Of a stretch of 64,000 bases of DNA, positions 1-48,404 are shown one piece after another. Position numbers and translations under genes: made by a program. Every line of letters begins with the position of its first letter. Positions within the stretch are counted from its first letter, which is position 1. The notes under the pieces were generated by a model. That model was not told the DNA's origin and ran no database searches. It saw nothing but the letters and a program-made list of their open reading frames with translations. This DNA is from a virus: the IMG/VR virus record IMGVR_UViG_3300006735_000020, positions 25,325 to 89,324 of that record; one strand, 5' to 3'.

Positions 1-1005
1 GATAATTACATCAATGAACCATTAGAAAGAGGCGATAGTAGTTCCCCTACTTTTATATATACAAATAATACACCGATTCTAATTGAAACTCATTTTACTA
101 CTAGCGGTGGTCCTTTCTACGGTACACTTGCGATACAGGAGCTTATAAACAAAGCAATAACTAAACTAGCAGGTGAAACGATGGGTGTGTATGGTGGTAA
201 TTATACACCTAACACAGTTGATATTGATGAAGAACTTTTAAAAGGTATTTCATCAAGTGATGATGATAGTTATGGTGTTGTACGTACAACACCACCGCCG
301 GATGAAACCACTCCTCCACCACCTCCAGTAACCCAACCTCCGTGTCCTGAAGGTAAGGAAAGAGTTAACGGTGAATGTGTAGATGTTTGTCCTGACGGTT
401 GGAGGCGTAATGAACAGGGTATATGCTATGATCCGTATCCTGAGCCGGTTGATGAATCGGATGGTTCATTAAACGGTAGCCCGATCATAAGAACACCAGA
501 TTTACCCGGATTAATATTTTCTGATCCAACCGACGGTAGTAGTAGTGATTTTAGGATATATGAAGATCCTACTACTGAGCCACCGTATAGAACTACACCA
601 CCGTATACTACGCCACCTTATACGACTACACCGACGTATACCACACCGACGTATACCACACCGGTATATACTACCCCACCGCCGCCATGTACAACTATTC
701 CACCACATATTGTACCACCGGGAGAGAGCTTTCCTCCAGATCCTAGAACCCCAATAATTACTCTACCTCCTGAACCACCAGAGCCGCCGGAGCTACCGGA
801 AACACCTGAGACTCAAGAGGTGCCGATATTTTTATATCCGGCTCCTATTTTACCGTTACAAACACCGTTCATAATGGACGAGGTTACAACTACGACTACT
901 ACAACTACTACAACTACTACTACGACAACGACAGTTCCTCCTGTATTAACGGTGACTACAACTATTTGTCCGGAGGATGAAGATTGCAATAACCTACAGT
1001 TTTAG
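1..1005 (+). CDS. Pro/Thr-rich mucin-like protein, 5'-truncated (probable virion surface/fibre protein)
   Basis: Frame 1 is open from base 1 to the stop at 1005. It contains TTPP(Y) repeats, a run of 16 Thr and a Cys-spaced EGF-like segment (CPEGKERVNGECVDVCPDGW...C). Confidence 0.75.
   Translation, partial: DNYINEPLERGDSSSPTFIYTNNTPILIETHFTTSGGPFYGTLAIQELINKAITKLAGETMGVYGGNYTPNTVDIDEELLKGISSSDDDSYGVVRTTPPPDETTPPPPPVTQPPCPEGKERVNGECVDVCPDGWRRNEQGICYDPYPEPVDESDGSLNGSPIIRTPDLPGLIFSDPTDGSSSDFRIYEDPTTEPPYRTTPPYTTPPYTTTPTYTTPTYTTPVYTTPPPPCTTIPPHIVPPGESFPPDPRTPIITLPPEPPEPPELPETPETQEVPIFLYPAPILPLQTPFIMDEVTTTTTTTTTTTTTTTTVPPVLTVTTTICPEDEDCNNLQF
580..687 (+). repeat. Coding tandem repeat (P-Y-T-T-P)n
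   Basis: Imperfect 15-bp units; ACACCGACGTATACC is exact at 628-642 and 643-657. Confidence 0.85.
886..933 (+). repeat. Poly-Thr tract (16 ACN codons)
   Basis: Mixed ACA/ACT/ACG codons all encoding Thr. Confidence 0.9.
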
Positions 1006-1016
1006 TAATTATTAAT

Positions 1017-1844
1017 GTGGGAAAGCTAACTATCGGAACTTGCGTTTATGATGACTATGAAGGTCTCTATTTTACTATTCAATCCTTAAGATTACATCAT
1101 AAAGAGGTATTAGATAGGCTAGAATTTGTTATCATTAATAACAACCCAAAATCAGCACAAGGAAGAGAGATCCGTAAGTTTGTCGACTGGCTTAAAGAGC
1201 CTGTAACATATGTTGAGTTTGATGGTTTCTCAGCAACCTCACTAAGAGATAAAATATTTGGTTTAGCTAACACTGAATACGTATTAGTATTAGATTGTCA
1301 TGTATTATTAGATCCTGGTAGCTTAAAGAAGCTTTTAGATTTTTATGATGCAGGTAAAGATCATCAAAACTTATTACAAGGGCCGTTAATATATGATGAT
1401 ATGAAGAATGTAAGCACCCATTTTAATCTCGATAAGTGGGGTAGTGATATGTGGGGCGTTTGGGATACAGATAAACGAGGTAAAGATCCTAATAATAAAC
1501 CATTTGAAATACCAGCACAAGGTTTAGGTTTATTTACATGTAGAAAAGATAGCTGGTTAGGCTTTAATAAAAAGTTTAGAGGATTTGGTGGTGAAGAGGG
1601 CTATATTCATGAAAAATATAGATTAGCTGGGCGAAAGGCTGTTTGTTTACCGTTTCTTCGATGGTTACATCGCTTCGGTAGACCTGCTGGTGTTCCTTAT
1701 CGCCCAACTAAAGAGGATAGATTCCGTAATTATATGATTGGATTCCAAGAAATTGGAAAAGATACTAATGAAATAATCGAAAGATTTAAAGGTAAAGTAT
1801 CAACAGAATATATCCAAGCCGTTAAAGAAGAATTAGGTTTATAA
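1017..1844 (+). CDS. GT-A glycosyltransferase, polypeptide GalNAc-transferase (GT27/GT60)-like
   Basis: LVLDCH (DxH), P-x-QGLGLF, GFGGEE and WLHRF..PY motifs in the same order as in ppGalNAc-T catalytic domains. Confidence 0.75.
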   Translation: MGKLTIGTCVYDDYEGLYFTIQSLRLHHKEVLDRLEFVIINNNPKSAQGREIRKFVDWLKEPVTYVEFDGFSATSLRDKIFGLANTEYVLVLDCHVLLDPGSLKKLLDFYDAGKDHQNLLQGPLIYDDMKNVSTHFNLDKWGSDMWGVWDTDKRGKDPNNKPFEIPAQGLGLFTCRKDSWLGFNKKFRGFGGEEGYIHEKYRLAGRKAVCLPFLRWLHRFGRPAGVPYRPTKEDRFRNYMIGFQEIGKDTNEIIERFKGKVSTEYIQAVKEELGL

Positions 1845-2072
1845 GTTACCTAAAGTAGCTTCTACCTTGAGATCATGCTTCATTGAATGAAATCTCTCAT
1901 CAATATACTTTTGAAAAGCGAGAGGCTTAATCCAGTTATTACTTTCAATATCGATATCTTCTCTACCACCTACTACTTCAAGCGCTTCAATTAGACAAGC
2001 CCAACGAACTAGTTCATCAAAGTCCATCGTCTTCGTTGTACCGTCTTTTAGTTTAAATTCATGTTTATTCAT
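1839..2072 (-). CDS. Hypothetical protein
   Basis: 77-aa ORF with TATAAT 6 nt upstream of ATG. Confidence 0.65.
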   Translation of the reverse strand: MNKHEFKLKDGTTKTMDFDELVRWACLIEALEVVGGREDIDIESNNWIKPLAFQKYIDERFHSMKHDLKVEATLGNL

Positions 2073-2084
2073 AATATAATTATA

Positions 2085-2540
2085 TTATAGTTCCGTTCCT
2101 GGCTTATAGTCAGATGTTATTTTTATATCCTGGCTTTCGCTTACTTCTTTCGCTAAGTCAGAGAATGTCTTATTAACATCGAGAGTTTCGGTTAGGAGCG
2201 TTGGTACTAGATTTATATCTACTCTATATGTATTGTTACACTTATCACATGTAAATGTATTATCCATATTTACAAATACATTCTGCTGAAAAGTATTATT
2301 ATTACATGGGCATACAATTGTCGCTTCATTAAGATCGAGAAGTTGTTGTAATTCTCCTTCAAACTCTGCAGTAAGATTATCTACTTTATTAATCTTGAGA
2401 GATGAAACAATAAAAGCAATTAAAAACTGACAAACAAAAACGAGAACTGTAGTCTCCCAAAATCCAAATATATTGCGTAATCCAAAACCAATAGCAAGAG
2501 ATACAAGTATAGTAATAAAAAACGACCTTAAGATAGTCAT
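2085..2540 (-). CDS. Membrane protein with CxC...CxxC zinc-ribbon
   Basis: Two N-terminal hydrophobic helices, then CPC and CDKC. Confidence 0.65.
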   Translation of the reverse strand: MTILRSFFITILVSLAIGFGLRNIFGFWETTVLVFVCQFLIAFIVSSLKINKVDNLTAEFEGELQQLLDLNEATIVCPCNNNTFQQNVFVNMDNTFTCDKCNNTYRVDINLVPTLLTETLDVNKTFSDLAKEVSESQDIKITSDYKPGTEL

Positions 2541-2863
2541 ATAGCTATTTTAGCCATATCCTCTGGAATATCAAGTAGTAGTTCGTTAATTTGATCAATT
2601 TTATTGTTAATTTGATCAATAACACCACCAGCAATATTTTCATTAGATTTTGCTGCTGCTAACATATTTCTTACTTCAACTAAATTTGTAAACGTGTCTC
2701 CTAGGAGCTGATTCATTTGCTGTAAGTGATATGGTAAGATAGGCGGCGCTTTTTGGTGTTTTTCATTATCCTTATACATACCCATTTGATCTGAAGCATT
2801 CATATGAAAGTTGATAGGCTTATCTTCTGGGCCTACGCTGTAAGGAAATTCTGGTCCATCCAT
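2537..2863 (-). CDS. Hypothetical late protein
   Basis: 108-aa ORF with TAAATA 5 nt upstream. Confidence 0.65.
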   Translation of the reverse strand: MDGPEFPYSVGPEDKPINFHMNASDQMGMYKDNEKHQKAPPILPYHLQQMNQLLGDTFTNLVEVRNMLAAAKSNENIAGGVIDQINNKIDQINELLLDIPEDMAKIAI

Positions 2864-2868
2864 GTAAT

Positions 2869-2890
2869 TATTTATGCTAGAGACTAAATA
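2869..2890. promoter_or_regulatory. Divergent pair of T4-type late promoters (TAAATA)
   Basis: TAAATA on minus (2869-2874) and plus (2885-2890), each 5 nt from an ATG. Confidence 0.7.
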
Positions 2891-2895
2891 ATTTT

Positions 2896-3333
2896 ATGAC
2901 CAAATTTGAAAACCGTTTTTTTAAATCTCTTAATGAACAAGCTGAAGAGGAGAGAGCAGCTTTTGAAGCAGAATTAGAGGATAATACCGAGGCTGGTGAT
3001 TTTGACGTAGATGTTGAAGTAGATGAAGTTGCTGTTGATGAAGATCCAAATGTAAAGGCTGCACAAGCTGTTAGCGAGCGCAACGCGGCTATGAGAACTA
3101 AGCTTGAAGGTTGGGTTGGTGAAATTGAACAGTTTTTAGAGTACTTAAATGGTTCATCTCCAGATTCAATTCAAACTCTACTAGCTAATGCTGAGCCTGA
3201 TACAATCTTTGATCGTATGAAAGCTTCTGAACAGCGTAAAATTGCTAGAGTTGCTACAGAGCTAGCTGCTCTAAACGAGTCGTTTAAAGGTTATATTGCC
3301 CAGACCGGAAATGCTCAGTTTAAATACGTTTGA
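2896..3333 (+). CDS. Acidic late protein, putative head internal protein
   Basis: N-terminus MTKFENRFFKSLNE resembles a capsid-targeting sequence; late promoter upstream. Confidence 0.65.
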   Translation: MTKFENRFFKSLNEQAEEERAAFEAELEDNTEAGDFDVDVEVDEVAVDEDPNVKAAQAVSERNAAMRTKLEGWVGEIEQFLEYLNGSSPDSIQTLLANAEPDTIFDRMKASEQRKIARVATELAALNESFKGYIAQTGNAQFKYV

Positions 3334-4376
3334 TTTCGATATTTTTTAATCTCAGATAATCTCACAATACCTTCGATTCCATCGAAGGTATTTTTTTCTA
3401 TAAAGCTCCACTTTATTTCATCTATCTTACAAGCAATTGCAATATCATTAAAGTCTTTAAATCTCTTGCCAAACTTCTCCGGCCATATAAACACTCTCTC
3501 TCCTTGTTTGAGTAGTACTTCAGACTTTACTAAGGATGCCTGATCAACCCACTGTGAATCAAGGATCCACGTTTTATCATACCATTTAAGCGTTGTATTT
3601 AACTGCTCTTCTTGCCGTTGTGTAAACGATTTACCACGTTCAGTAATACCTGCTACAGCAATTGAATTTTTCGTAAAGAAAGCATTAATTGGCCCCTCAA
3701 AAATATAAACACAATCATGATCACTACTTACACGATTAATATTAAAGAGCGTTTTTTCAGCATTTACCTTTCCTAAATATTTCGGTTTAACTTTATTATC
3801 TTTGTTTAGGACGGTCCTTGTTTGATAGAACTCTATTTCATCACGCTCATTAAAAAAAGGTATAACGAGTCTATTTTTATGTACCATATCAGTTAATGAT
3901 ACATATAACGATGAAGGTTTGTTTATCGCGGTATCTAATCGCCGCTCTTTAATTAAATGTCTAACAGCTGTAACAACGTTACTACTATTATAAAAGTTAA
4001 GCTGAAGCTCGTCAGACAAATTAATACTATCCTTAGGTAAGGTAGCGACTTTAAAGTTTGGTTTAGTATCTTCACTTCTTTCAACAATATCTTCAGCATC
4101 TGGAACATGATCTTTTAATTCTTTAATTATATCTTTATCCGTAGTACCTGATACTTCTTTTATCCATCTTAACGGTTTACCAGACCACCCACAGTTATGA
4201 CAAAATATATTTTCATTTTTAGGTATGTAATAACATCGTCTTTTTTTACCTAATGACTTACCCTCTCTGCAGATAGGACAACTACATTGATAAACGTTAT
4301 TAAATTTGTTATACTTAGGATAAAAACCTAGCTCAAAGAATTTTAGTATAACAAAATCTTCAGGAAGCGATATCAT
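3315..4376 (-). CDS. gp61: DNA primase (T4 gp61-like)
   Basis: CPIC...CHNC zinc finger, RLVIPF, and Toprim motifs FEGPINA and KDFND. Confidence 0.92.
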   Translation of the reverse strand: MISLPEDFVILKFFELGFYPKYNKFNNVYQCSCPICREGKSLGKKRRCYYIPKNENIFCHNCGWSGKPLRWIKEVSGTTDKDIIKELKDHVPDAEDIVERSEDTKPNFKVATLPKDSINLSDELQLNFYNSSNVVTAVRHLIKERRLDTAINKPSSLYVSLTDMVHKNRLVIPFFNERDEIEFYQTRTVLNKDNKVKPKYLGKVNAEKTLFNINRVSSDHDCVYIFEGPINAFFTKNSIAVAGITERGKSFTQRQEEQLNTTLKWYDKTWILDSQWVDQASLVKSEVLLKQGERVFIWPEKFGKRFKDFNDIAIACKIDEIKWSFIEKNTFDGIEGIVRLSEIKKYRNQTYLN

Positions 4377-5244
4377 TTAACTTATTATATAAGTTTTTCA
4401 TAAAAAACAAATTATGCCAATCTTCTTTTTTATCTAAAATTCTCTTAAAGGAATATTCCTCGCAATATTCAAGAAATACCTTATATGAAGGATCAACTTT
4501 AACAGCTAATTGATCTTTATAGTATTGTGCTTCATCAGGTAGAGACTCATACTTATCTAAACAAAATATATCTACGTTTCGTTTGAATATTTCGCGTTGA
4601 GAATCATCTAGCATAAATCCAGGATCTTCAAAATATTTTTTAACTGAAGCTTTACCAAAGCGAGGTATACCTGGTACATTATCCGACTTATCACCCGTCA
4701 AACATTTTGCAGTAAACCATTGCTCAACATCCTTATACCCTGTCTGCTCTTCAAAATTACTATCTTCAAAGAATCTCTTACGTATCGGATCGTATAAGGT
4801 ACACTCAGAACTAACCAATTGCAGAAAGTCTCTATCAACCGAGATAATTACTTTCGAACCTTCGTGCTCTCTACAAATATATGCAACAATATCATCTGCC
4901 TCTAGTTCACGAGGAAAGATAGAATTAATACCCATTGAGTAGAGTATCGACTTTATGACCTCGTTATTTTGATGAGGTGAAAGATCCTTAGATCGATTAC
5001 CCTTGTATTCCTTAAGGATGCTCTTGCGTATATTGGGTTTATAGTCTTGCTTTTCATCCCATACAAATATCGTAGTATCAGGAACAAACTGCTTCACGTA
5101 GGAGCTAACAGCGTTAAGCGTAAAGTAAATATGGAAGTTACTTACCTGGTAATCCGAGTGGTTCTCCGTCTTCTTCGACTGAATCTTCGCTGTATGATAT
5201 GTTCGGTGTATTAAATTGTTCCCGTCTATTATTAGAGTTTTCAT
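4360..5244 (-). CDS. rnh: RNase H / 5'-3' flap exonuclease
   Basis: IIDGNNL, YKGNR, EADD, SVDRDFLQL and GDKSDNVPGI motifs. Confidence 0.92.
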   Translation of the reverse strand: MKTLIIDGNNLIHRTYHTAKIQSKKTENHSDYQVSNFHIYFTLNAVSSYVKQFVPDTTIFVWDEKQDYKPNIRKSILKEYKGNRSKDLSPHQNNEVIKSILYSMGINSIFPRELEADDIVAYICREHEGSKVIISVDRDFLQLVSSECTLYDPIRKRFFEDSNFEEQTGYKDVEQWFTAKCLTGDKSDNVPGIPRFGKASVKKYFEDPGFMLDDSQREIFKRNVDIFCLDKYESLPDEAQYYKDQLAVKVDPSYKVFLEYCEEYSFKRILDKKEDWHNLFFMKNLYNKLNDIAS

Positions 5245-5494
5245 TTTTATTATATTGAGCCTCTACAACAGAATATACGTTTTTAGGAAGCTTCTCTACA
5301 AACTTAATTATATCATTGTTCCTTCCGTTATCAAATGATTCTATCGGAACATCAACGTTTTCCATTTGCGGTAAAATAAGACAGCCAATGGTGTCTTTTT
5401 TTAATTTTACCACTGCAAACATTTTACCTACGTAGTCTCCCGTCTCAACTGCGTATATATCTCTTTTACGATATTTCATCTGGACCGAACCCAT
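5138..5494 (-). CDS. Hypothetical protein
   Basis: ORF within the minus-strand operon; start uncertain; overlaps the rnh 5' end. Confidence 0.55.
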   Translation of the reverse strand: MGSVQMKYRKRDIYAVETGDYVGKMFAVVKLKKDTIGCLILPQMENVDVPIESFDNGRNNDIIKFVEKLPKNVYSVVEAQYNKNENSNNRREQFNTPNISYSEDSVEEDGEPLGLPGK

Positions 5495-5810
5495 GGCCTT
5501 TTATATGATGCATTTCAGATGCAAAGTATTTTAATAAAAACGAATTTAATGCTTCTTGTTGTTGTGGTGTTTTAGACGCTTTAATGTCTAAATGTTGCCC
5601 TTGAAAATCATAACCCAATAAAATATAACAATCTAAATATTCACTAATAATATTGCATAACCTACGCGCTAAATCTTGTCTTCTTTTAAATGTTTTTTTC
5701 TCAACTATACTTTGCTTAAGGGCCTTTTCAACCAATTCTCTTAATTCCTCATCATTTTCAACCGGATCCTCAAAATCTTCAAAATCTTTTTCTGGTTGAT
5801 CATCGCTCAT
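5466..5810 (-). CDS. Hypothetical protein
   Basis: 114-aa ORF; TAAATA at 5816-5821, 5 nt upstream. Confidence 0.65.
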   Translation of the reverse strand: MSDDQPEKDFEDFEDPVENDEELRELVEKALKQSIVEKKTFKRRQDLARRLCNIISEYLDCYILLGYDFQGQHLDIKASKTPQQQEALNSFLLKYFASEMHHIKGHGFGPDEIS

Positions 5811-5814
5811 ATAA

Positions 5815-6150
5815 TTATTTATTCAGAAAATCATTCTTATTCCTCTGCTGTACTCCGGATTTTAATAGCTTACTTACAACAACTTCAATTGAATCGGTTT
5901 TCAAACTAAAGTTATTGTTGAATATTTGATTACCGTCATTAAAGTTAAACAGATATTCTCCTTTAAATGGTGTATTTTCAAAACACGTAACATAGACAGA
6001 AGTTCCACCTGGATCAATTAAAACAGTCCACTTACGAGGATCAGTTTCACTATACTTATCAAATATTCGTAACGTTACAAAATCGTTATCTTTTAATCTT
6101 TTAATAAAATAACCTGCGGTTTTAAGCTTGTTCTTCTTCTGTGTATCCAT
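5815..6150 (-). CDS. Hypothetical protein
   Basis: 111-aa ORF tightly packed after the sliding clamp gene. Confidence 0.65.
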   Translation of the reverse strand: MDTQKKNKLKTAGYFIKRLKDNDFVTLRIFDKYSETDPRKWTVLIDPGGTSVYVTCFENTPFKGEYLFNFNDGNQIFNNNFSLKTDSIEVVVSKLLKSGVQQRNKNDFLNK

Positions 6151-18225: not shown

Positions 18226-20802
18226 TTATTTACTAAACAAGTCAAAAAGTTCTACTGTAACATTCTCAGCTGGTTTGCGAATATTCCAACCCACACAATC
18301 ATAAAATCTTTCGATACCTTGAAACAAAATCTTTTCAAACATTTTATCATAATCAATCTTAAACGTATCTTTAAACTCAGAAGGGTAAGCATACTTAAAG
18401 CCGATACTATCCAATCCGTATTTATTGGGTTTTTCGACATACATATAACGAACTTTATCACCCGAACCTAACGATTCATACTTGTTTCCTGTATTAAGCT
18501 TATCTAAAAGTAGATTATAAAAATATGCAGACTTAACATGTATTGGCATACTTTTCACAGTATTAAATTCGTTACAATCTACAGCATACTTCTCGTAACC
18601 CTTTACTCCCATAACAAACGCAAGTTCTTCCGGAGATAAACCTTTAAATATATCATACGTCTCGTTGAGTATCTTATTAGTTTCAGTCAAAGACTGTGTA
18701 CTTAACATAGTCTCAATAATTTTTTTAGCATACGGCTTAATAGCATTAGGCATAGTAGTTCGAACTACTTCAACTCCTGTATATTTAAATTTATTTTCCT
18801 TAATACCCTCATCATCAAGGATATGCATAACGTATCTTTTCTTTTGCAAAAAGACGCCTACATCCGCTATACATTCTCGCTTAAACACAAACCTACTATC
18901 TTTTGATAGTAGGGATTTTTTAGCCCAATTCTGTACACCTTCATTTAAATAGTCCTCAATCTCTTGAATCTTATCATGTGTATCTTGATGTACATCATCT
19001 CCATCTAAAAAGTTTAAACCCTTGCTAACAAGAGGAGTAATAGAAACATACGACGAGTCCGTATCATTGTATACAATACACTCTTCAAGCTCATTATCAG
19101 AGATATCTGGAATCTCTTTTTTGATAAATTGCTTGATAAGCTCATTTGAATATTTAATGACAGCTTGCCCGGTAAGCGTAACAGAAGATGCGATATCATC
19201 ATCACCAATAGGAGCATTCTTATTACCCATGTAACCATAACACGAATTAATAAGAATCTTAATAACCATTTGTGATGTATTCAGTCTCTCTACTTCATAC
19301 TTCGCGCTAGTATATTCTGCAGAATCTTTTTTAAGTTTCTTAAGTTTTGTCTTAGCTTTAAAGAGGTCTTTCTTAATTTTAACACGTTGATTATAATAAT
19401 GCTCTAGAAACTCTGGTATAATACCTTTCTTCTTTTGAGTAAAAAGGAACCCAGCTTTAGACAGTGCACACTCTTCATCTTTTAGGAACTTTACAAAAGC
19501 AGGCTTATCAAGTTCAAACACTTTACCTGTTACATGCTGTATAATAACCTTATCATCTGTGGTCTTCTCTACTCTACCTACTTTAGTTTCTGGTGAAGTA
19601 TTCAAAGATATCATCACATTAGGATATAGAGAATTAGCATCAAACGACACAACATGATTTTTAAAACCTTGCTTAGGTTCTGCAACATACGCGCCCGGAT
19701 TTTTACCGGTATCAGCATTACGTAAAAATGTAGCAATAACCTCACCTCGACGCCTTGCTTTAATGCAAAGAGCACCGTTAATCACCTGAATAGTTCCCAT
19801 TGCTCCCTCAAGAGTCGTTAACCCAACATATGAGAGCATTCTCAATAAAGGAACATATTGAAGCTTTTCTTCTAGTCTTACTAAAAGGTTAACGTCTTGA
19901 ATGTTGTAGTCAATAAACGTATCCCAGTCTTCATCAGATAAAGTTGCAAGGTTAGTATCACCGTAATCAATCTTTCGTTGACCGAGCTCAACTTCACCAA
20001 TTGCATCCAACTTATAAGACTCACGAAGCTTTAAACAAAACCGTCTATATACATCGAGATAATCTAAACAAGCAATACCATCAATATAGTATCTTTTTAG
20101 ATCACGCCCAAACTTACCCTTTACAGCTCTAAAATGTACTCTACCTAGAGGAGATAATCTATCAACATAATCTTGCCCAAGTATACGTTCAATTCGATTA
20201 ATAATATAAGGTATATCAAAGAATTCAGAGTTCCAACCACTTAAGATATCCGGGTAGTCGCTTTCAAGATATTCAATGAACCGGATAAACATTTCACGTT
20301 CATCTCTACAATGAACATAGTTTAAATTATCAGCACCTTTACCATTATATGGTTTAATACCAAATGTATGAAACTTTTTACTAAAGTTATCATAACAAGT
20401 TATAACGTTTACAACATGAGTTGGGTCTTCTGGGTTAGGAAACGAATCTGGTGAATATGTCTCAATATCAAGTAAACACGTCTTAAGCGGGTTAGTACTA
20501 AATTCCGGTTCTTCGTTTTGCTGCCAGTATAAATCAAGCAAGAATTGCTGAACGGGCGGCATATTTTCAAATACACGCTTTATGTTTGAGTCACGAACAA
20601 ATCTAGATCGGTCAAAACTAGTATTAAATTTACGTTTTGATACCTTAGTCCCGTAGATAGATGTTTTATCACCGGCAGTATTTTCAACATAGAGATAAGG
20701 CTCAAAAGAGCATTCGTGCATTACACGCTTACCATCTTTATCCCAAGTAAATAAATTTACACAACGGTTTCTACCGTTATAAACAACATTACGATACGAC
20801 AT
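18226..20802 (-). CDS. gp43: Family B DNA polymerase (gp43)
   Basis: Exo DIET and GWNSEFFDIPY; SFDANSLYP; KILINSCYG; YNDTDS; KKRY. Confidence 0.97.
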   Translation of the reverse strand: MSYRNVVYNGRNRCVNLFTWDKDGKRVMHECSFEPYLYVENTAGDKTSIYGTKVSKRKFNTSFDRSRFVRDSNIKRVFENMPPVQQFLLDLYWQQNEEPEFSTNPLKTCLLDIETYSPDSFPNPEDPTHVVNVITCYDNFSKKFHTFGIKPYNGKGADNLNYVHCRDEREMFIRFIEYLESDYPDILSGWNSEFFDIPYIINRIERILGQDYVDRLSPLGRVHFRAVKGKFGRDLKRYYIDGIACLDYLDVYRRFCLKLRESYKLDAIGEVELGQRKIDYGDTNLATLSDEDWDTFIDYNIQDVNLLVRLEEKLQYVPLLRMLSYVGLTTLEGAMGTIQVINGALCIKARRRGEVIATFLRNADTGKNPGAYVAEPKQGFKNHVVSFDANSLYPNVMISLNTSPETKVGRVEKTTDDKVIIQHVTGKVFELDKPAFVKFLKDEECALSKAGFLFTQKKKGIIPEFLEHYYNQRVKIKKDLFKAKTKLKKLKKDSAEYTSAKYEVERLNTSQMVIKILINSCYGYMGNKNAPIGDDDIASSVTLTGQAVIKYSNELIKQFIKKEIPDISDNELEECIVYNDTDSSYVSITPLVSKGLNFLDGDDVHQDTHDKIQEIEDYLNEGVQNWAKKSLLSKDSRFVFKRECIADVGVFLQKKRYVMHILDDEGIKENKFKYTGVEVVRTTMPNAIKPYAKKIIETMLSTQSLTETNKILNETYDIFKGLSPEELAFVMGVKGYEKYAVDCNEFNTVKSMPIHVKSAYFYNLLLDKLNTGNKYESLGSGDKVRYMYVEKPNKYGLDSIGFKYAYPSEFKDTFKIDYDKMFEKILFQGIERFYDCVGWNIRKPAENVTVELFDLFSK

Positions 20803-40281: not shown

Positions 40282-41040
40282 ATGAGAATAGCATTTTCAG
40301 GTACAGGGAATAGTGGTAAGACCACCCTTTTAAGAAGCTTTTTATATACGTGGACGGGTTATAAAACTCCAGAAAAAACGTATAGAGAGGTGTTACAGGA
40401 GAAAGAGTTACCTCACTCTTCCGAGTTAACTACTGAAACACAAGAAGAAATACTTAACTTTATGGTTGATGATGTACAATTAGCCGGGAAAGGTGATAAG
40501 GTGGTGTATGATAGATGTCCTCTTGACGCTATAGCCTACTCAATGTGGGGACATGACAAGAAGATTGAAGGCTTTACAAAGGAATTTGTTACAAAACAAA
40601 TTAACTTAATGAGAGAATCGATGAGATCTATTGATATTATATTTTTATGTCGGTTTGATCCTAATCAGGCTATACAGGATGACGGATTTCGTGATACAGA
40701 TAAAAAATTTATAGTGGAGGTTGATAATATCTTTTATTCTCTCTTCAGACAGTATACAGAACACCCGGAAGCTGATGTCTTTTTTCCTAAAGGTGACTCA
40801 CCGTGTATAATTCTGTTACCAGATAATGGTCAAGAGAGGATCGACTTAATTAGTGAATATGTTACTGTTGATGGAGAAATGTATGGTGATGAAAATTCAC
40901 TCTTTAGCCCAGAAAATATTAATCAGTTAGAAGATTTGGTTAAGCAGCAACAGAATGCTCATGACGCTGAAGAAAAAGAAAAAGAACTTAAGAAAAAATT
41001 TGGGTTACCTGGTGGTGGTTATCCGCCAATAACGCTATGA
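40282..41040 (+). CDS. P-loop nucleotide kinase-like protein (AAA_28/dNMP kinase-like)
   Basis: IAFSGTGNSGKTT, YDRCPLD and DDGFRD motifs. Confidence 0.75.
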   Translation: MRIAFSGTGNSGKTTLLRSFLYTWTGYKTPEKTYREVLQEKELPHSSELTTETQEEILNFMVDDVQLAGKGDKVVYDRCPLDAIAYSMWGHDKKIEGFTKEFVTKQINLMRESMRSIDIIFLCRFDPNQAIQDDGFRDTDKKFIVEVDNIFYSLFRQYTEHPEADVFFPKGDSPCIILLPDNGQERIDLISEYVTVDGEMYGDENSLFSPENINQLEDLVKQQQNAHDAEEKEKELKKKFGLPGGGYPPITL

Positions 41041-41834
41041 GTAAGGTTGGGGTAGGTATTATTACATGCAATAGGGTTGCTATGTATAAAAAATGTTGTG
41101 ACTCAATACAAAAGAGTTGGTATGATGAATTAGTTACTGTAAACGATGGTGATCAAAGTATTACATGTAATAATGGTGATTATATAGAGACTTCAGGTGG
41201 AGAAGGTGTTGGTAAGGCTAAGAATAAAGCTATAAAACACTTGCTAGATAAAAATTGTGATTATATCGTTCTTGTAGAGGATGATATGTTGTTTAAAGGC
41301 AACCTCTTCGAGCAATATATTAAAGCACATAAAGAAACCGGTATACATCACTTTATGTTTGCTTACCATGGACCGGCAAATAAGGCAGGAATAAGCAGAG
41401 GGAAGCCGGTTCCACGTAAGGTTATTGATTATGGCGATGTTAAGATTGCTTTAAATCAGCATTGTGTTGGTGCCGTTTGTTTTTATACAAAACAATGTCT
41501 AGATGAGGTAGGGTTATACGACGAATCTTACACTAATGCATTTGAACATGTTGACCATTCATATGAATTAGCAAAAGCTAATTATAGTACACCTTACTGG
41601 TGGTGGGCTGATATTGAAAATAGTTTAGACTATGTAGAAGAACAAGCATGTTCAGAAGATAATTCAGCAATTCGTCCAAGATCAGATTGGCAATCTAATA
41701 TTCAAAAATCAGCTATAAGATTTTCACAAAAGCACGGTGTATCACCAGTACAAGTATCAGATACACCAGTAGATAAAATTATTGATAAACTCAAACAAAT
41801 TAAAAATGAAAATAGACCTATTTTGTCCAAGTAG
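41037..41834 (+). CDS. Glycosyltransferase family 2
   Basis: IITCNR, VNDG, GVGKAKN, LVEDD and GLYDE..AFEHVD motifs. Confidence 0.85.
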   Translation: MSKVGVGIITCNRVAMYKKCCDSIQKSWYDELVTVNDGDQSITCNNGDYIETSGGEGVGKAKNKAIKHLLDKNCDYIVLVEDDMLFKGNLFEQYIKAHKETGIHHFMFAYHGPANKAGISRGKPVPRKVIDYGDVKIALNQHCVGAVCFYTKQCLDEVGLYDESYTNAFEHVDHSYELAKANYSTPYWWWADIENSLDYVEEQACSEDNSAIRPRSDWQSNIQKSAIRFSQKHGVSPVQVSDTPVDKIIDKLKQIKNENRPILSK

Positions 41835-42534
41835 AGAAAGAATTAATAAAGTATTAACGTTTATTTGCAGTATAATTACAACAGCAAAAGATATTAATAA
41901 TATTAATCTCGTTTTAGGAGTTGATGATGATGATCCAAAGCTTGATCATTATTTAAAAATAGCTCAAAATTTAGATTTCATACAAGTAGTACGCTACCCT
42001 GAAGGTCTCATAGAAAAGATAGGATTGTGTGGACTATGGAATGTAATGGCTGAACAAACAACAAATGAAATTATCGCTATGGTTGGTGATGATATGAAGT
42101 TTGAAACACCAGACTGGGATGAAAAAATACTTAAAGAATTTTCTAATAAAGAAGATAATTTTTATCTTATCCACTGCAATGATGGTATGAGGGGTCCGGG
42201 TAACAAGTATGCTAATGTACCACCGTTAGCAGTTAATTCATTTATACATAGAGATTATGTCGATACAGTCGGTCATTATATGGAAGAGGTAGAGCCTAAT
42301 ACCTTTGGTGACACATACCTAGATAAGGTATTTGAACTCTTAAATCGTAAAATTTACTTTCATGATATTATGATAAGGCATATGCATTTTTCAGAGTATG
42401 GTGGAAAGGATCAGGTATCAGTTAATATTGAAAAAACGAGAGAAGGTATATGGGATGATCCTGCTTTTTTTCAAGAAAAATTAATGCCTGAGATTCTTAA
42501 AGAAGTGGAAATTATAAAAGCAAAAATTGCATGA
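41806..42534 (+). CDS. Glycosyltransferase family 2-like
   Basis: PSRER, GVDDDD, MVGDDM...WD and H-x-H motifs; start moved to ATG 41806. Confidence 0.8.
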   Translation: MKIDLFCPSRERINKVLTFICSIITTAKDINNINLVLGVDDDDPKLDHYLKIAQNLDFIQVVRYPEGLIEKIGLCGLWNVMAEQTTNEIIAMVGDDMKFETPDWDEKILKEFSNKEDNFYLIHCNDGMRGPGNKYANVPPLAVNSFIHRDYVDTVGHYMEEVEPNTFGDTYLDKVFELLNRKIYFHDIMIRHMHFSEYGGKDQVSVNIEKTREGIWDDPAFFQEKLMPEILKEVEIIKAKIA

Positions 42535-43193
42535 ACATATATACTCACTATAGTGATTCACATAAAGAATTATATGAAGATTTTTTTAAGCCGTCCTTAA
42601 GAAATATTTATAACAAGGATAAAGTATCTATTCGAGCTGCTTATCATAAACAAACAACTAACGAGGGTAAGTTTATGGAAGCTGGTTGGCTTGATAGTAT
42701 GAAATATAAATTACAGGTTATTCTTCAAGCTATAGAAGAAAATAACAATGATTATTTTATTTTTGCTGATACAGATATTGTTTTTTATGATGATTTTATT
42801 GATGATTTAAAAGAATCATTAGGTAATAAAGATATAGCATGTCAAGAAGATTGTAATTCTCTATGTGCTGGTTTTTTTATAGCTCGTGGTAACGATAAAA
42901 ATAAAAAATTATTTACTGAAATATATAATAATTTTACACAAATGGTAAATGATCAAGTAGCTTTAAATCGCTTAAAAGACATGGTCGACTATAAGTTTCT
43001 AGATAAAGAAAAATATTATACTATTGGTAATTTTTATGATAATCCTGATGGTACACATGTTTGGGACGGTGTTACAAATATTATGCCTCCTAAAAATATG
43101 AAGTTACATCATGCTAATTATGTAGTCGGGGTAGAAGATAAAATTAAGCTTATTAAGTTAATAAGAAATCATTATCTAGCAATGGTAGAATGA
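42531..43193 (+). CDS. Nucleotide-diphospho-sugar transferase (GT77-like)
   Basis: FADTDIVF, CAGFF, NDQ..LN and HHANY..G..K motifs. Confidence 0.8.
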   Translation: MNIYTHYSDSHKELYEDFFKPSLRNIYNKDKVSIRAAYHKQTTNEGKFMEAGWLDSMKYKLQVILQAIEENNNDYFIFADTDIVFYDDFIDDLKESLGNKDIACQEDCNSLCAGFFIARGNDKNKKLFTEIYNNFTQMVNDQVALNRLKDMVDYKFLDKEKYYTIGNFYDNPDGTHVWDGVTNIMPPKNMKLHHANYVVGVEDKIKLIKLIRNHYLAMVE

Positions 43194-44065
43194 TTGTAGA
43201 TTTTAAAGAGTTAAGGATACCTTTAATACATCCAACATACCCTCCATACCACACAGGTAAATATATGGAGGAATACTTTTATGAGTTTTATCTCAACAAT
43301 AAAAAAGAGTTCGATCAAACAGGCTTTACTCTTATACCGATATTTTGGACAAATGTATATATAATGGAGGGTAAGGGGGCTAATAAGCGTAAATTAATAC
43401 AACCCTATTTAAACGCTCTACCGAGTGGTAAATATTTTACTGTATCACAACACGATGATGCAGTAGCAGAGCAACTTCCGGAAGGAACTCTATCATTCGA
43501 AGGGGGAGGTAATGGTAATGGCATACCTCTACCATTAATATGTTCTAAAATGCCTACCAAAACAACTACAACTAAAAAAGATATTTTTTGTTCTTTTGTT
43601 GGATCGGCATCACACCCTGTTCGTCAGACTATTAAAGAAACTTATATAAATGATAGCGACTTTCAATTATATATGAAGCCATGGACACAGGCTATACCTG
43701 AAGCTCAGCTTAATTTTTTTATAGACATAACAAATAGATCAAAATTCTCATTATCACCTCGAGGGTATGGAGCTCAAAGCTTTAGATTCTACGAAATATT
43801 ACAACTTAACTCAATACCGGTTATTGTATACGATAAAAAATGGCTTCCATTTGAAGATGAAATTGATTATGAATCATTTTGTGTACTAGTACATGCAGAT
43901 GAAATTTGTAACTTAAAGAATATACTGAATAATATTTCTGATAAGCAGCAAAAAGATATGCTTAAAAGAGGTAAAATTATATACAATAAGTATTTTACAC
44001 TCGACGGTATGTGTAAACAAATATTAAAAGCATTACAATCAAATGTTGAGTTATCTCAATCTTAG
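43190..44065 (+). CDS. Exostosin-family glycosyltransferase (GT47-like)
   Basis: SFVGS...R and SKFSLSPRGYG..SFRFYE.L...IPV....LPF motifs. Confidence 0.85.
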   Translation: MIVDFKELRIPLIHPTYPPYHTGKYMEEYFYEFYLNNKKEFDQTGFTLIPIFWTNVYIMEGKGANKRKLIQPYLNALPSGKYFTVSQHDDAVAEQLPEGTLSFEGGGNGNGIPLPLICSKMPTKTTTTKKDIFCSFVGSASHPVRQTIKETYINDSDFQLYMKPWTQAIPEAQLNFFIDITNRSKFSLSPRGYGAQSFRFYEILQLNSIPVIVYDKKWLPFEDEIDYESFCVLVHADEICNLKNILNNISDKQQKDMLKRGKIIYNKYFTLDGMCKQILKALQSNVELSQS

Positions 44066-44079
44066 TATAAAATATACTG

Positions 44080-44907
44080 ATGATAGTTGATGGAAATAAC
44101 TTTATAAGTCATTATTTAAAAAATAATATTCCATTTACAGCAGGAAAGCTTGGTGGTAATGAGCTTCAAATTTTATGGTGTACTCTTAATAGATCAAACC
44201 CTTGGGGCCAGCAATTTTTAAAAGAGACACAAGATGTAGCTGGTTTATATCCGGTTAATGATGATACTTTTAAATGGTTTACTGATAATGTATTACAAGA
44301 TTTAAAATATTTAGATTTAGCACCGGTATGGAGAGAGAATGTTCTTCCAGGATTTGAAAAAGATATATATCAAAAATATTGTGATAAGGTAAATATTACA
44401 AAATTACAACATCTAGAGCCATATTTCTTTGATGATCCATGGACAACATATTTAGAGGGTAAAAAAGTTGCAGTGTTTTCTCCGTTTGCAACATCAATAT
44501 CTAATAACTTTAAAAATCTTAGTAAAATATGGAACGGTAAGATAACTTCTAATTTTGATCTTATACCTGTACAGTATCCAACAGCTATTACCATAACAAA
44601 AGATACTCCTTATAAAAACTCACGAGAAATATATGATGAAACTCTTACAAAAGTTAAAGAACTAGATTTTGATATAGGTATTTTTGGTACAGGTCATACA
44701 GGTCTTTTACTAGCATTAGAGTGTAAGAAAGTTGGGAAGACAGGAATACACTTAGGTGGTGCAACGCAAATTTTATTTGGTATAAAAGGTAATAGATGGG
44801 ATAAGATGAAAGAGTTTCAACCATTTTTCAACGAATATTGGTCACGTCCGTTAGAGAGTGAAACTCCTGATCAAATAGACGTTGTTGAACAAGCTTGTTA
44901 TTGGTAA
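44080..44907 (+). CDS. Putative glycosyltransferase (GT-D-like)
   Basis: LEPY...PW...L.GKKV, DFDI..G.G and GIHLGGATQILFGIKG.RW motifs; upstream TTGAGT-N16-TAAAAT. Confidence 0.6.
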   Translation: MIVDGNNFISHYLKNNIPFTAGKLGGNELQILWCTLNRSNPWGQQFLKETQDVAGLYPVNDDTFKWFTDNVLQDLKYLDLAPVWRENVLPGFEKDIYQKYCDKVNITKLQHLEPYFFDDPWTTYLEGKKVAVFSPFATSISNNFKNLSKIWNGKITSNFDLIPVQYPTAITITKDTPYKNSREIYDETLTKVKELDFDIGIFGTGHTGLLLALECKKVGKTGIHLGGATQILFGIKGNRWDKMKEFQPFFNEYWSRPLESETPDQIDVVEQACYW

Positions 44908-44908
44908 T

Positions 44909-45685
44909 ATGAGAGTAATAATAGAATATGATCCGTGGGGTCGACTAGGAAATAGAATGTTTCAATATGCTTTTGCATATTTGTTGGCTGAAAAATTTAA
45001 TTGTGAGTTATTTTATAGAGAAGGTTTACCTAATTTTGGAATTGAACCTAAACCGGTTGATAGATTACAATCTAATGTTTTAAAAGCAAGATCTTTAGGA
45101 GATCAACATTTTGATTTTGATGCAATTAAGGATTTTGATGGTGATATAATCCTTGACTCTTTTGTACAGCAATCGAAGTATTATATCGATAATCGTGATA
45201 CATTAAGAAAGGTGTTTGGAATTAGAGATTTAGATACTATTAATAAAGACTCATTAGTACTGCACGTGAGAGGTGGTGATTATCATCAACTAAAACAGTT
45301 TTTAGGTTTGGACTTTTATAAAGGTCTTATAGATTTTTCTGGATTTTCAAAAGTTAAAATTGTTACAGACGATCCAAAATGTGAAACTGTAACTAATTTA
45401 TTAGAGTATGGATGTGAGCTTGAAACATCTTCACTAGGACCAGATTTTAATATTAATGGAGATAGAAGCGCGATGGATGATATGAAAACATTATTATATA
45501 GTGAAAATCTGGCTATATCACAATCTTCTTTTGCTTGGTGGCCAGCATTTTTAGGTACGCATAAGAAAATTATTTTTCCATACAGCCTTACACTCGATAC
45601 TCAATCATGGCCATTGGATCCAAAACACGACGATATTGATTTGTATTTTGACTTTAATAATACCAGTCATAAGTACGTAAAATGA
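44909..45685 (+). CDS. Alpha-1,2-fucosyltransferase-like (GT11)
   Basis: GRLGNRMFQYA, LHVRGGDY, VTDD and SSFAWW.A.L motifs. Confidence 0.88.
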   Translation: MRVIIEYDPWGRLGNRMFQYAFAYLLAEKFNCELFYREGLPNFGIEPKPVDRLQSNVLKARSLGDQHFDFDAIKDFDGDIILDSFVQQSKYYIDNRDTLRKVFGIRDLDTINKDSLVLHVRGGDYHQLKQFLGLDFYKGLIDFSGFSKVKIVTDDPKCETVTNLLEYGCELETSSLGPDFNINGDRSAMDDMKTLLYSENLAISQSSFAWWPAFLGTHKKIIFPYSLTLDTQSWPLDPKHDDIDLYFDFNNTSHKYVK

Positions 45686-46599
45686 ACATTGTTTTATTTC
45701 ATAGAGGTAATTATTTACCACATCGACCAGATATGTCTGGCTTACCTGGTCATATAAAATATTGTATTAGACAAATACGCCACACAAATCCCGACTATAA
45801 TATATATTTTCTTACAAATTTAAATATAGAGGCACCGGATGACCCTAAAATAAAAATTATTAATGTAAATGAATTTACTGCTCCGGATATTTCTAATTAT
45901 TTTTCACATGATATACCAGAACATGTGCAGCTATGGCAGACATCTATACTAAGAGTATTTTATCTAGAAAAATTCTTAGAAAAATACAATATTGAAGATG
46001 TTATTCATTTTGATAATGATATTGTTTTATATTCTGATCTTAAAAAGTTTGAAAGTAAATTTAAAAAATTTAACCTTTTAATAACTCCACATTTTGAAAC
46101 GGAATATGTTTTTGGTTTTAGCTATATAAAAAATTACAAAGCATTAACAAAAATAAACAAAGAGCTTTTACAGTTAGTAAATTTACCGTTTAGTGAATTA
46201 CAGCAAAAAGTTAATCATGAATGTCCGCATGAAATGAGAATGATTAACTATATAAACAATTGTAGTAATATGAAGTTAATAGATCATCTTCCCGTTGTAC
46301 CAACTGGTGAAGGTAGTGATAACTTTAAATTGTTTAATACTATTTTCGATCCCTCAACATACGGTAAGCATGTTGGAGGGTCTCATGAACTTGGTCATCA
46401 TAATAAACATTATGTACCGACAGAAAGTTGGAATGGTACAGAAGGTCACCACTACGCAGGTAAGCAAATTATTAAAAATAATATTAAAGTTGATTTTAAA
46501 AATAAACAACCATATTTAAAGTGTAGCGATGGTAATATATATGATATTGCAAATTTGCATATACATACAAAAGAGTTAGATAAATTTATAACTTACTAG
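45682..46599 (+). CDS. Putative glycosyltransferase
   Basis: R.FYL, HFDND, EM, IFDP..YG..VGG and NLHIH.K motifs. Confidence 0.65.
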   Translation: MNIVLFHRGNYLPHRPDMSGLPGHIKYCIRQIRHTNPDYNIYFLTNLNIEAPDDPKIKIINVNEFTAPDISNYFSHDIPEHVQLWQTSILRVFYLEKFLEKYNIEDVIHFDNDIVLYSDLKKFESKFKKFNLLITPHFETEYVFGFSYIKNYKALTKINKELLQLVNLPFSELQQKVNHECPHEMRMINYINNCSNMKLIDHLPVVPTGEGSDNFKLFNTIFDPSTYGKHVGGSHELGHHNKHYVPTESWNGTEGHHYAGKQIIKNNIKVDFKNKQPYLKCSDGNIYDIANLHIHTKELDKFITY

Positions 46600-46601
46600 C
46601 T

Positions 46602-47438
46602 ATGTTTATTTCCGGTGAAGCTTTACAAGAGCTAGCTGATTTGACTATAATATTTTCAGATCAGCGTCATGACGAATTATGGAAAGTTCAAATACATAAT
46701 ATAAACTGTAAATACATTGTAATTAGCCCAGGTGATAGCTTACCTGAAGAAATATTTACAGCACGTTCTATTTTTATATACACACATGCACTACCATTAT
46801 TTTTTGAAAGAGTATTTCCGTTATTAACAAAACCTATAACACTCTTATCACATAACTCTGATCACGGTGTAGATAATAATTATTTAGAATATTTAAACAG
46901 TAATAAAATTAATAAATGGTTTTGTCAAAATAGATTAACATCTCATCCAAAATTATTTTCTTTTCCAATAGGAATTGCAAACAGTCAATGGGAACATGGT
47001 AATCAAGAGCTTTTTAAGAGTGTAGTTGATAAAAATATACCTAAAGAATTTTTAGTATATAAAAATTTTGATATAGGTACAAATGCATATGAGCGTAATT
47101 TATGTCACGCTATCACTCAGCGTAATGGTATACCTATGAGCTCAAAAACAACTATTCCTGCGTATTGGGATATGCTAGCAAAAAGCGCATTTGTAATATC
47201 GCCTCCTGGTGGGGGTATTGATTGTCACCGTATATGGGAAGCTCTTTATTTTAAAACTATACCTATTGTTCAAAGCCATGTAAGCTTTTCGCAATTTGAA
47301 CATTTACCAATACTGTTTGTAGATAAATGGGAGGATATAACGATACAGTACCTGCGTAATAAATTATTATATAATGATATTGACTGGAATATAGATGAGC
47401 TTAAGTTAGATTTTTGGAAGAAAAGCTTAGTTGAATAG
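46602..47438 (+). CDS. Exostosin-like glycosyltransferase
   Basis: HNSD, WFCQN, PIG and FVISPPGGGIDCHRIWEALY...PIV motifs. Confidence 0.75.
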   Translation: MFISGEALQELADLTIIFSDQRHDELWKVQIHNINCKYIVISPGDSLPEEIFTARSIFIYTHALPLFFERVFPLLTKPITLLSHNSDHGVDNNYLEYLNSNKINKWFCQNRLTSHPKLFSFPIGIANSQWEHGNQELFKSVVDKNIPKEFLVYKNFDIGTNAYERNLCHAITQRNGIPMSSKTTIPAYWDMLAKSAFVISPPGGGIDCHRIWEALYFKTIPIVQSHVSFSQFEHLPILFVDKWEDITIQYLRNKLLYNDIDWNIDELKLDFWKKSLVE

Positions 47439-47458
47439 TGTACATTGTATTATACAAT
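47431..47458 (+). promoter_or_regulatory. Sigma70-like promoter TTGAAT-N16-TACAAT
   Basis: 5 nt upstream of ATG 47464. Confidence 0.6.
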
Positions 47459-47463
47459 AGGGT

Positions 47464-48045
47464 ATGATTATTAGAGAAGGTGTATACGACGGTAAATTAA
47501 TTCATGAAAGATTTGCTTATAAATATTTTCGAAAGCAAGTATCTCCAGCGGGTAATATTGTAGCATTTAGAGCTCCAATGTATGTTAAAGAAGAGCTTAT
47601 TGACTTAGAAGACTCTTTGAGTAATGATTTTATTCATAGTCAAGATGCTATAAATTTTTGCTGGGAGATTCCTAACTTATGTCCGCTTGGTGCTGTATCG
47701 TTTCAAAGACTACTCAATACAGCAATTGCTAATATTCTATCTAATATTATTCAAAAGCCTATTGTAGTAGATGGTGACGATTTATTGGTGCAAGATGAGT
47801 TTGTAGGTGTTGATAAGCAAGTTCGACAGTCTGGTAAAGTAAGTGTTTCGATTACTTACTCGAAAGATAATGTAGCTGTAGGTCATACCGGTATCAATAT
47901 TGTAGCTGGTGATAAAGCTCCTGCGTTTGCTTACTCTTCTAATTTATCAGAAAAAAATACAGAAGAGTTTATGACTGCTGTAATCGATTATTTTAATAAT
48001 GAGGTTGCTGATCAGTTTGTTGCTACTACAAAAGTAATTGTATGA
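47464..48045 (+). CDS. DUF366-family protein
   Basis: YDG...AY, IVAFR, IDLED, QRLL, DGDDL, KVSVSI and H.GINI motifs. Confidence 0.75.
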   Translation: MIIREGVYDGKLIHERFAYKYFRKQVSPAGNIVAFRAPMYVKEELIDLEDSLSNDFIHSQDAINFCWEIPNLCPLGAVSFQRLLNTAIANILSNIIQKPIVVDGDDLLVQDEFVGVDKQVRQSGKVSVSITYSKDNVAVGHTGINIVAGDKAPAFAYSSNLSEKNTEEFMTAVIDYFNNEVADQFVATTKVIV

Positions 48046-48404
48046 ATTTTTTCCAACTTCAAAATAAATTATTTTACTCTAAGAAAGATAAAGCGGGGGA
48101 TTTAGATGCTGAAGGCGAACAATCATTCGTTCCATTCTTGTTTAATCGTTGGCTTTCTTTTTATAATAATGATATGTCTGTCTTTACGAATGAGACATTG
48201 AATAAGTTCAGTACTATATTTGAAAATAAACAAGACGCTTATAAATTATATTACTATTTGATTCCGCGACTTAAGTTTAAAAGAATATCCTATATTAAGA
48301 AGGTAAAAAAGGATAAAGAAGAGGAAGAGAATTTAAATTTACTTGCTAAAAATAAGAATATTTCAGTTCGCGAATTAAAAAATTATATAAAAAATTATGA
48401 GTAA
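48042..48404 (+). CDS. gp62: Clamp-loader small subunit (gp62-like)
   Basis: FVPFLFNRWLS, NE.LN, Y..Y...IP and basic KK..K region; 120 aa. Confidence 0.7.
   Translation: MNFFQLQNKLFYSKKDKAGDLDAEGEQSFVPFLFNRWLSFYNNDMSVFTNETLNKFSTIFENKQDAYKLYYYLIPRLKFKRISYIKKVKKDKEEEENLNLLAKNKNISVRELKNYIKNYE

Follow-up and report, generated by a model that had tools for sequence, protein, structure and literature searches.

Mucin-type O-glycosylation is regarded as a process of the eukaryotic Golgi. The polypeptide GalNAc-transferases (ppGalNAc-Ts) of family GT27 transfer GalNAc from UDP-GalNAc to Ser or Thr residues of polypeptides in a retaining reaction. To our knowledge, glycosylation of virion proteins has been demonstrated experimentally in only a few phages, the mycobacteriophages. 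In PMC11256854 and PMC12582341, which relay Freeman et al. 2023, the glycosyltransferases (GTs) of Che8 and its relatives are described as glycosylating the phages' own structural proteins, with glycans shown experimentally on the major capsid proteins of actinobacteriophage siphoviruses. GTs encoded in the host recognition clusters of pelagimyophages have instead been proposed to modify the host O-chain (PMC7029224). Here we describe a GT gene in a 64,000-nucleotide (nt) stretch of viral DNA (the window; bases 25325-89324 of the 89,324-bp IMG/VR virus record IMGVR_UViG_3300006735_000020), where it directly follows the gene of a mucin-like protein of the tail-fiber module. This GT probably works in the cytoplasm as a protein Thr O-glycosyltransferase, with mucin-like fiber-module proteins as its substrates. 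Our literature searches, which covered GT27 in bacteriophages, Thr-rich proteins with phage GTs, precursors associated with PqqD, HPr kinase and GTs, and mucin-like proteins of the twin-arginine translocation (Tat) route, found no description of such a cassette.

The GT gene (positions 1017-1844 of the window, + strand) begins with a GTG codon at 1017, leaving an 11-nt gap after the upstream stop codon at 1003-1005, and encodes what Pfam, AlphaFold2 and Foldseek indicate to be a soluble, single-domain GT-A glycosyltransferase of 275 amino acids (aa). An earlier reading of the window from its letters alone (here, the initial annotation) had reported this spacing together with the motifs VLDCH, PFEIPAQGLGLF, GFGGEE, and WLHRFGRPAGVPY, and all were found where it had placed them. 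When the AlphaFold model of the enzyme (predicted local distance difference test score [pLDDT], 92; predicted TM-score, 0.90) was compared with the PDB using Foldseek, the best 50 matches listed were all GT27 ppGalNAc-Ts (E of ~2e-13; TM of 0.74). A second, independent structural aligner, run against 48,161 representative chains and scored as VIA Z, placed mouse GalNAc-T1 first (8v9q; Z of 22.1 over 255/275 aa; root mean square deviation of 2.9) and Toxoplasma GalNAc-T3 second (Z of 21.2). Next below GT27 came the chondroitin polymerase K4CP (Z of 18.2), the fucosyltransferase WrtF (16.8), and B4GALNT1 (16.7); generic GT-A enzymes had Z values of 16.5 or less, and the glycocin S-glycosyltransferase SunS had a Z of 12.5. 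By both methods, the closest structures are GT27 catalytic domains, matched over nearly the full length of the enzyme (mouse GalNAc-T1, human GalNAc-T2, and Toxoplasma GalNAc-T3), rather than the ordinary polysaccharide GT2 enzymes that the initial annotation had named as the competing outcome.

The likeness to GT27 extends to sequence motifs. In a 30-sequence alignment of enzymes 55-90% identical to that of the window, D93-x-H95, H218, and the segment G-F-G-x-E-E-G-Y at 189-196 are invariant. GT27 enzymes present their DxH, their GGE(E/N) motif, and the later His in the same order; there, DxH and the His are Mn2+ ligands. In terms of chain ranges, the order and spacing of DxH, H218, and GFGGEEGY in the phage enzyme fit the aligned range 115-396 of GalNAc-T1. 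The predicted acceptors, Thr/Pro-rich mucin-like tracts, are alike as well. The GFGGEEGY segment may correspond to the WGGEN-type Gal/GalNAc-T motif; PF02709 (Glyco_transf_7C) has no match in the GT at E<=1; in some neighboring Atlas clusters PF02709 occurs on 20-82% of members, which we treat as a lead only.

The enzyme nevertheless differs from GT27 in several respects. It has no HMMER-detectable similarity to solved GT27 chains. Its 275 aa make up one domain, beginning with the first beta strand, and a type II membrane anchor, a stem, and a ricin-type lectin domain are all missing. The protein is soluble, with no transmembrane segment (maximum 19-aa hydropathy of 1.43), and its predicted site of action is the bacterial cytoplasm rather than the Golgi. 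Because both sequence similarity and domain architecture fail, we rejected the assignment of the GT as a GT27 member; on the evidence of the model, it resembles GT27 in fold and motifs and is not a member by sequence. Pfam assigns it to Glycos_transf_2 above the gathering threshold (PF00535; 37.4 bits against a cutoff of 23.3; E of 3.2e-9), and searches of PHROGs and NCBIfam returned nothing informative. The family is very large, with 1802 close homologs and, at 50% clustering, 1687 representatives, all with generic source names only.

The window opens within the predicted acceptor. Positions 1-1005 (+ strand) encode the last 334 of the 1176 aa of a mucin-like fiber-module protein whose gene (G000:C1:22799-26329) starts 2526 nt before the window. 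The Pro/Thr protein of the initial annotation is thus present as an open reading frame (ORF), but the window truncates it and its real length is 1176 aa. Two mucin-like tracts mark its tail, both of them noted in the initial annotation: a set of TTPPY/YTTP-type Thr/Pro repeats at ~571-690, and a run at 886-933 of exactly 16 Thr codons in mixed usage (ACT x8, ACA x5, ACG x3), the predicted main O-glycosylation tract. Homologous tails carry equivalent runs of up to 23 Thr residues. The protein then ends in a Cys loop with an aromatic end (I-C-x5-C-N-N-L-Q-F-stop; 964-1005), which in relatives takes the general form C-x(2-9)-C-x(1-3)-L-x-[FYW]-stop and is conserved better than any other part of the tails.

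Comparison with relatives shows the 1176-aa protein to be modular, with a conserved N terminus and tail and a variable middle; PHROGs and NCBIfam yielded nothing informative for it. It is the position of its gene that suggests a virion location. The gene ends a codirectional run of large genes, four of which match tail-fiber or tail-collar families, and the GT, as the final + strand gene ahead of convergent genes, closes this fiber block. In a promoter and terminator scan of positions 1-3000, nothing between the 1176-aa gene and the GT exceeded chance; the missing signal is compatible with cotranscription of the two genes and proves nothing.

The pairing of the GT with a Thr-rich tail recurs in related phages. 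Among 80 IMG/VR loci selected by the GT (orthologs 55-99% identical), 59 have one to three same-strand ORFs upstream that end in a Thr-rich tract followed by the Cys-loop terminus, while the same motif gave only 3 spurious hits among 6652 frames, so that the pairing is far beyond chance. After clustering of the GTs at 90% identity, such an ORF was present in 34 of the 47 usable phage clusters; it ends 0-40 nt upstream on the same strand in 33/47, and 9 clusters have tandem arrays of two or three tail ORFs. The partner ORFs range in length from 103 to ~2000 aa and have only a C-terminal module in common, made up of a Cys/Pro motif, a P-x-P-L-[TS] segment, polyThr, and the Cys loop. Ahead of this module stand unrelated globular heads or solely mucin-like sequence. 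In some freshwater and marine relatives, one GT is preceded by two or three small ORFs in tandem that encode little but mucin-like sequence, each ending in the polyThr and Cys-loop module (L043:689-2171 and 3858-5987; L079:3-2216 and 5122-5988; L063:3-2002).

Homologs of the GT are also found in bacteria. Our bacterial sample comprises 80 loci with GT domains ~50% identical, from Alphaproteobacteria, Desulfobulbaceae, Acidobacteriota, Bacteroidota, and others, many of them on megabase contigs. In a phylogenetic tree, 76 bacterial sequences form one clade and the phage sequences make up the remainder, which is the deepest split of the family. The bacterial homologs are soluble multidomain fusion enzymes. 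Among 68 family representatives, PqqD is present in 16 and GT25 in 18, and other representatives are fused to a second GT2, sulfotransferase, methyltransferase, or HprK-like domain. The PqqD domain is a peptide-recognition element, and its recurrent fusion therefore points to a polypeptide acceptor; the fusions fit the elaboration, in further steps, of a peptide or protein acceptor. A further fusion, in Bradyrhizobium diazoefficiens (L095:3405-5888), joins GalE (UDP-glucose 4-epimerase, above the NCBIfam cutoff) to the GT domain.

Small ORFs with Thr-rich tracts accompany the bacterial enzymes as well. We identified 43 ORFs, distributed over 31 of the 80 bacterial loci, that combine a Tat signal with the strongly conserved segment W-x-K/R-P-V-V-x-S-V-x-x-P-A-H-A; they often occur in tandem, and most of them immediately precede the GT gene in the same orientation. 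Some of these ORFs continue from the conserved segment straight into a polyThr/Pro tract; in the others, a domain of ~100 aa intervenes before a Thr-rich tail. Dense Thr, Ser, and Pro content characterizes 28/43 of these leader ORFs versus 91/2479 background frames, and NCBIfam and Pfam cover nothing of the family beyond the Tat signal. Examples include L088:3532-3903, L090:3710-3934, and the four copies each at L164 and L136; L090 is a locus of Oricola indica JL-62. Most members of the family stand immediately before genes of soluble enzymes that fuse PqqD, HprK-like, GT, and GT25 domains. Since polyThr partners that are otherwise unrelated stand beside the GT in both phages and bacteria, the link holds across the deepest split of the family. 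The adjacency that the initial annotation had asked to see in related phage genomes thus extends across divergent phages and into bacteria.

Relatives that lack the GT offer a contrast. Syntenic GT-less loci yielded eight distinct tail ORFs, which keep the Cys loop, have Thr runs of 1-6 residues, and carry an acidic segment before the loop. Within the last 300 aa, the maximum number of Thr residues per 20 aa is 5-14 in these ORFs versus a median of 14 in ORFs with a GT (P = 5e-4 by a naive Mann-Whitney test). The GT family profile, which has exactly one match in the 89-kb record (positive control), finds no member in a 171-kb, 81%-complete relative. As the Cys loop is kept without the GT, a role in assembly or structure is more likely for it than one as the acceptor. 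At one GT-less locus with a gene order otherwise as in the window record, the fiber protein (L194:8867-12676; 1269 aa) has many Cys repeats of the C-L-P-G-G-G type and an acidic tail replacing polyThr, with the terminal Cys loop kept.

Just before the window lies the gene of a 308-aa protein (G000:C1:21873-22799; L005:1874-2800), which overlaps the start of the 1176-aa gene by 1 base. In phages, this protein is a conserved third member of the cassette: a homolog is present in 48/80 of the GT-selected loci, and it remains beside the GT where no tail ORF adjoins, as in the L034 and L029 groups. In a second sample of loci, chosen by the 308-aa protein, 44/54 had the GT, 36/54 a tail ORF, and 32/54 both. 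None of the 80 bacterial loci encodes it. Searches with the 308-aa protein, singly or as a 27-sequence profile, found no Pfam or PDB match, and the Atlas gave weak leads only (Laminin_G_3 on 10% of one cluster).

Because the pairing of enzyme and polyThr recurs in many phages and bacteria, the phage probably sugar-coats the 1176-aa protein. The enzyme-substrate pair put forward in the initial annotation, along with the ppGalNAc-T-like character of its enzyme, is supported by the fold matches and the conserved adjacency. As we picture it, the GT would be a soluble, cytoplasmic, metal-dependent GT-A enzyme that binds a UDP-sugar through its DxH/His metal site and moves the sugar onto Thr hydroxyls where the product of the gene just upstream has its poly-Thr/Pro tracts; related phages have one to three small mucin-like proteins encoded at that position, and these would be the substrates there. 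The GT is probably cotranscribed and translationally coupled with the late tail-fiber block, so modification would take place in the infected cell, ahead of assembly, and would give the fiber-module protein a glycosylated, extended, and protease-resistant stalk. The GalE-GT fusion and the GalNAc-using top structural neighbors suggest a UDP-Gal(NAc) donor; UDP-GalNAc or UDP-Gal is plausible, and the sugar may be a HexNAc. The initial annotation went on to propose a "coated" phage particle. We rejected that part, as only fiber-module proteins bear a Thr tract in the 89-kb record, and these, not the capsid, are the likely targets.

This reading draws on fold, motifs, gene order, conserved pairing, and the domain fusions of homologs, from which we infer that the acceptor is a protein and that Thr is the residue modified, as well as the donor sugar, the virion location, and the biological role. 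Several points weigh against it, beginning with the wholly computational nature of the case. At the level of the enzyme, Pfam places the GT only in the broad GT2 family, whose members are mostly polysaccharide enzymes. Searches of all PDB chains at E<=10 with phmmer and with the 30-sequence profile returned no GT27 chain, and the single GT that they did return, TarS, had a nonsignificant E of 0.33. The proposed equivalence of the metal ligands to those of GT27 is read from their spacing within the aligned chain range. At the level of the pairing, about one-quarter of the phage clusters have the GT but no adjacent tail ORF, three large GT-bearing contigs are devoid of any run of 8 Thr, and 49/80 bacterial loci have no leader ORF within 5 kb. 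The counts are phylogenetically nonindependent, many of the loci being those of related T4-like phages, and the GT-less contrast, which is weaker when the last 300 aa are compared, may represent only ~2 lineages. The GT25 and sulfotransferase fusions, finally, would also fit chemistry of the lipopolysaccharide (LPS) type.

This last point leads to a different account, in which the GT alters a host envelope glycan such as O-antigen, capsule, or lipooligosaccharide, for instance against superinfection, and owes its place among fiber genes to nothing more than the mosaic build of the "host recognition cluster" in marine T4-like phages. The Pfam assignment to GT2 alone, the frequent fusion of bacterial homologs to GT25 "LPS" domains, and the large glycan island that the phage holds all fit such a role, and the pelagimyophage literature reads the GTs of host recognition clusters in this way (PMC7029224). 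Those phages resemble ours in being uncultured, aquatic, and T4-like with GT genes among the tail-fiber genes, but in our case the evidence favors proteins of the phage itself as targets, and the DNA polymerase of our phage reaches only ~32% identity to its counterpart in any cultured T4-like phage. The GT itself is soluble with no membrane segment, and its closest folds are protein O-GalNAc transferases. Its polyThr partners occur in unrelated bacterial contexts with PqqD fusions, which would be unexpected for a lipid-linked acceptor. Moreover, Pfam scans of the ORFs of >=150 aa at 39.5-54.2 kb, the region of the island, gave no match to any family of flippases, polymerases, or lipid-carrier transferases. 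We therefore regard modification of a host glycan as unlikely.

Other alternatives keep the GT within the cassette or detach it altogether. It is quite unlikely, in our view, that the acceptor is a protein other than the polyThr tract, either the 308-aa partner or other fiber proteins: the persistence of the 308-aa protein beside the GT where no tail ORF adjoins is what such a role would predict, but this protein is missing from the 80 bacterial loci whereas polyThr partners are common to both sides of the family, and where the GT is absent it is the Thr tracts that shrink and not the 308-aa protein. The strong conservation of the Cys-loop terminus and the presence of SunS among the structural matches raise the idea that the GT modifies the loop by S- or O-glycosylation, as in glycocins, with polyThr as a mere linker. 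This is highly improbable, given that the loop survives in GT-less relatives, that bacterial partners have polyThr and no such loop, and that SunS ranks far below GT27. Finally, the adjacency could be inherited synteny among related T4-like phages, whose counts are not independent, in which case the substrate of the GT would be DNA or a small molecule, and the Thr tracts would serve as unmodified flexible linkers; phage GTs that hypermodify DNA are known (bioRxiv 10.1101/2023.12.21.572611). Simple synteny would hardly produce the same pairing on both sides of the phage/bacteria split with nonhomologous partner proteins, nor partner ORFs that are otherwise unrelated and span a ~20-fold range of lengths, and we judge this explanation very unlikely.

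If the GT does glycosylate the Thr tracts of fiber-module proteins, the cassette can be set beside the systems described at the outset. Like mycobacteriophage virion glycosylation, it involves a GT linked to structural genes, here the fiber block, 11 nt past a protein with a Thr-rich tract and in a conserved arrangement. It differs in that the predicted target is the mucin-like tail of fiber-module proteins, the phages are aquatic T4-like myoviruses, the enzyme is GT27-like, and the system is known from genes alone. The bacterial homologs also recall glycosylation of ribosomally synthesized and posttranslationally modified peptides (SunS and PqqD-type elements), since they are GT-A enzymes fused to PqqD or HprK-like domains and stand beside small, leader-bearing, precursor-like ORFs that are often in tandem. 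The phage GT, however, has no PqqD or other extra domain, its partners are up to ~2000 aa long and have no N-terminal leader, and SunS is only a distant structural match.

More tentatively, and with rather less assurance than for the phage enzyme itself, we suggest that the GT family could represent a prokaryotic and phage form of mucin-type O-glycosylation. A soluble ppGalNAc-T-like enzyme would start O-glycans on polyThr, giving bottle-brush fiber stalks in aquatic T4-like phages and Tat-exported mucin-like glycoproteins in diverse bacteria, and the family may even lie at the bacterial root of the eukaryotic GT27 fold. Carriers of the cassette include abundant uncultured aquatic T4-like phages as well as members of many bacterial phyla. 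If our reading is correct, sugar-coated fibers would be common in viruses of oceans and lakes, with effects on adsorption, particle stickiness, protease resistance, and grazing, and the "LPS-type" GTs of phage host recognition clusters would need to be reread. The enzyme would also be small, soluble, and directly assayable with simple peptide acceptors, and possibly useful for glycoengineering.

Two further regions of the 1176-aa protein lie wholly or partly in the window. Positions 1-264 (+ strand) encode the end of a putative protease-like domain (protein aa ~630-930; L005:4687-5589) that is shared with some relatives (L013, L026, L028, and L080). Its alignment (A2) has invariant H86, D138, and G224-D-S-S-x-P229, and these His, Asp, and GDSSSP motifs appear to be arranged like a chymotrypsin-type catalytic triad, an assignment from motifs only. 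The domain has no Pfam or PDB match, including by profile against the PDB; a homolog search with region 630-930 returned only the self-match, and a model from an 8-sequence alignment was unusable (pLDDT of 46). Downstream, at approximately 343-429 (+ strand), lies the small Cys segment that the initial annotation called EGF-like. The four Cys residues are present, and the surrounding block (aa 960-1031) is 46-89% conserved in relatives, but the Pfam EGF family has no match at E<=1, so it is not a confirmed EGF domain.

The record as a whole is a fragment of an uncultured marine T4-like myovirus, with genes for a portal protein, a gp15-like protein, primase, RNase H, and DNA polymerase. Its polymerase (window 18226-20802, - strand) shares no more than ~32% identity with that of any cultured T4-like phage, which places the phage in a deep-branching uncultured lineage without a cultured model. 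A megablast search with positions 1-6000 of the window and a tblastn search with the GT gave zero matches among 50,697 phage records, and hence no cultured model.

The glycan-building island, recognized in Pfam scans, occupies positions 41037-54173 (+ strand). Its transferases are GT2-, GT77-, GT47 exostosin/RXYLT1-, and GT11-like, and its nucleotide-sugar side comprises a DegT aminotransferase, three epimerase/dehydratases, and two short UDP-glucose dehydrogenase-like proteins. The initial annotation had raised a possible link between this island and the cassette, and it could supply or extend the cassette glycan.

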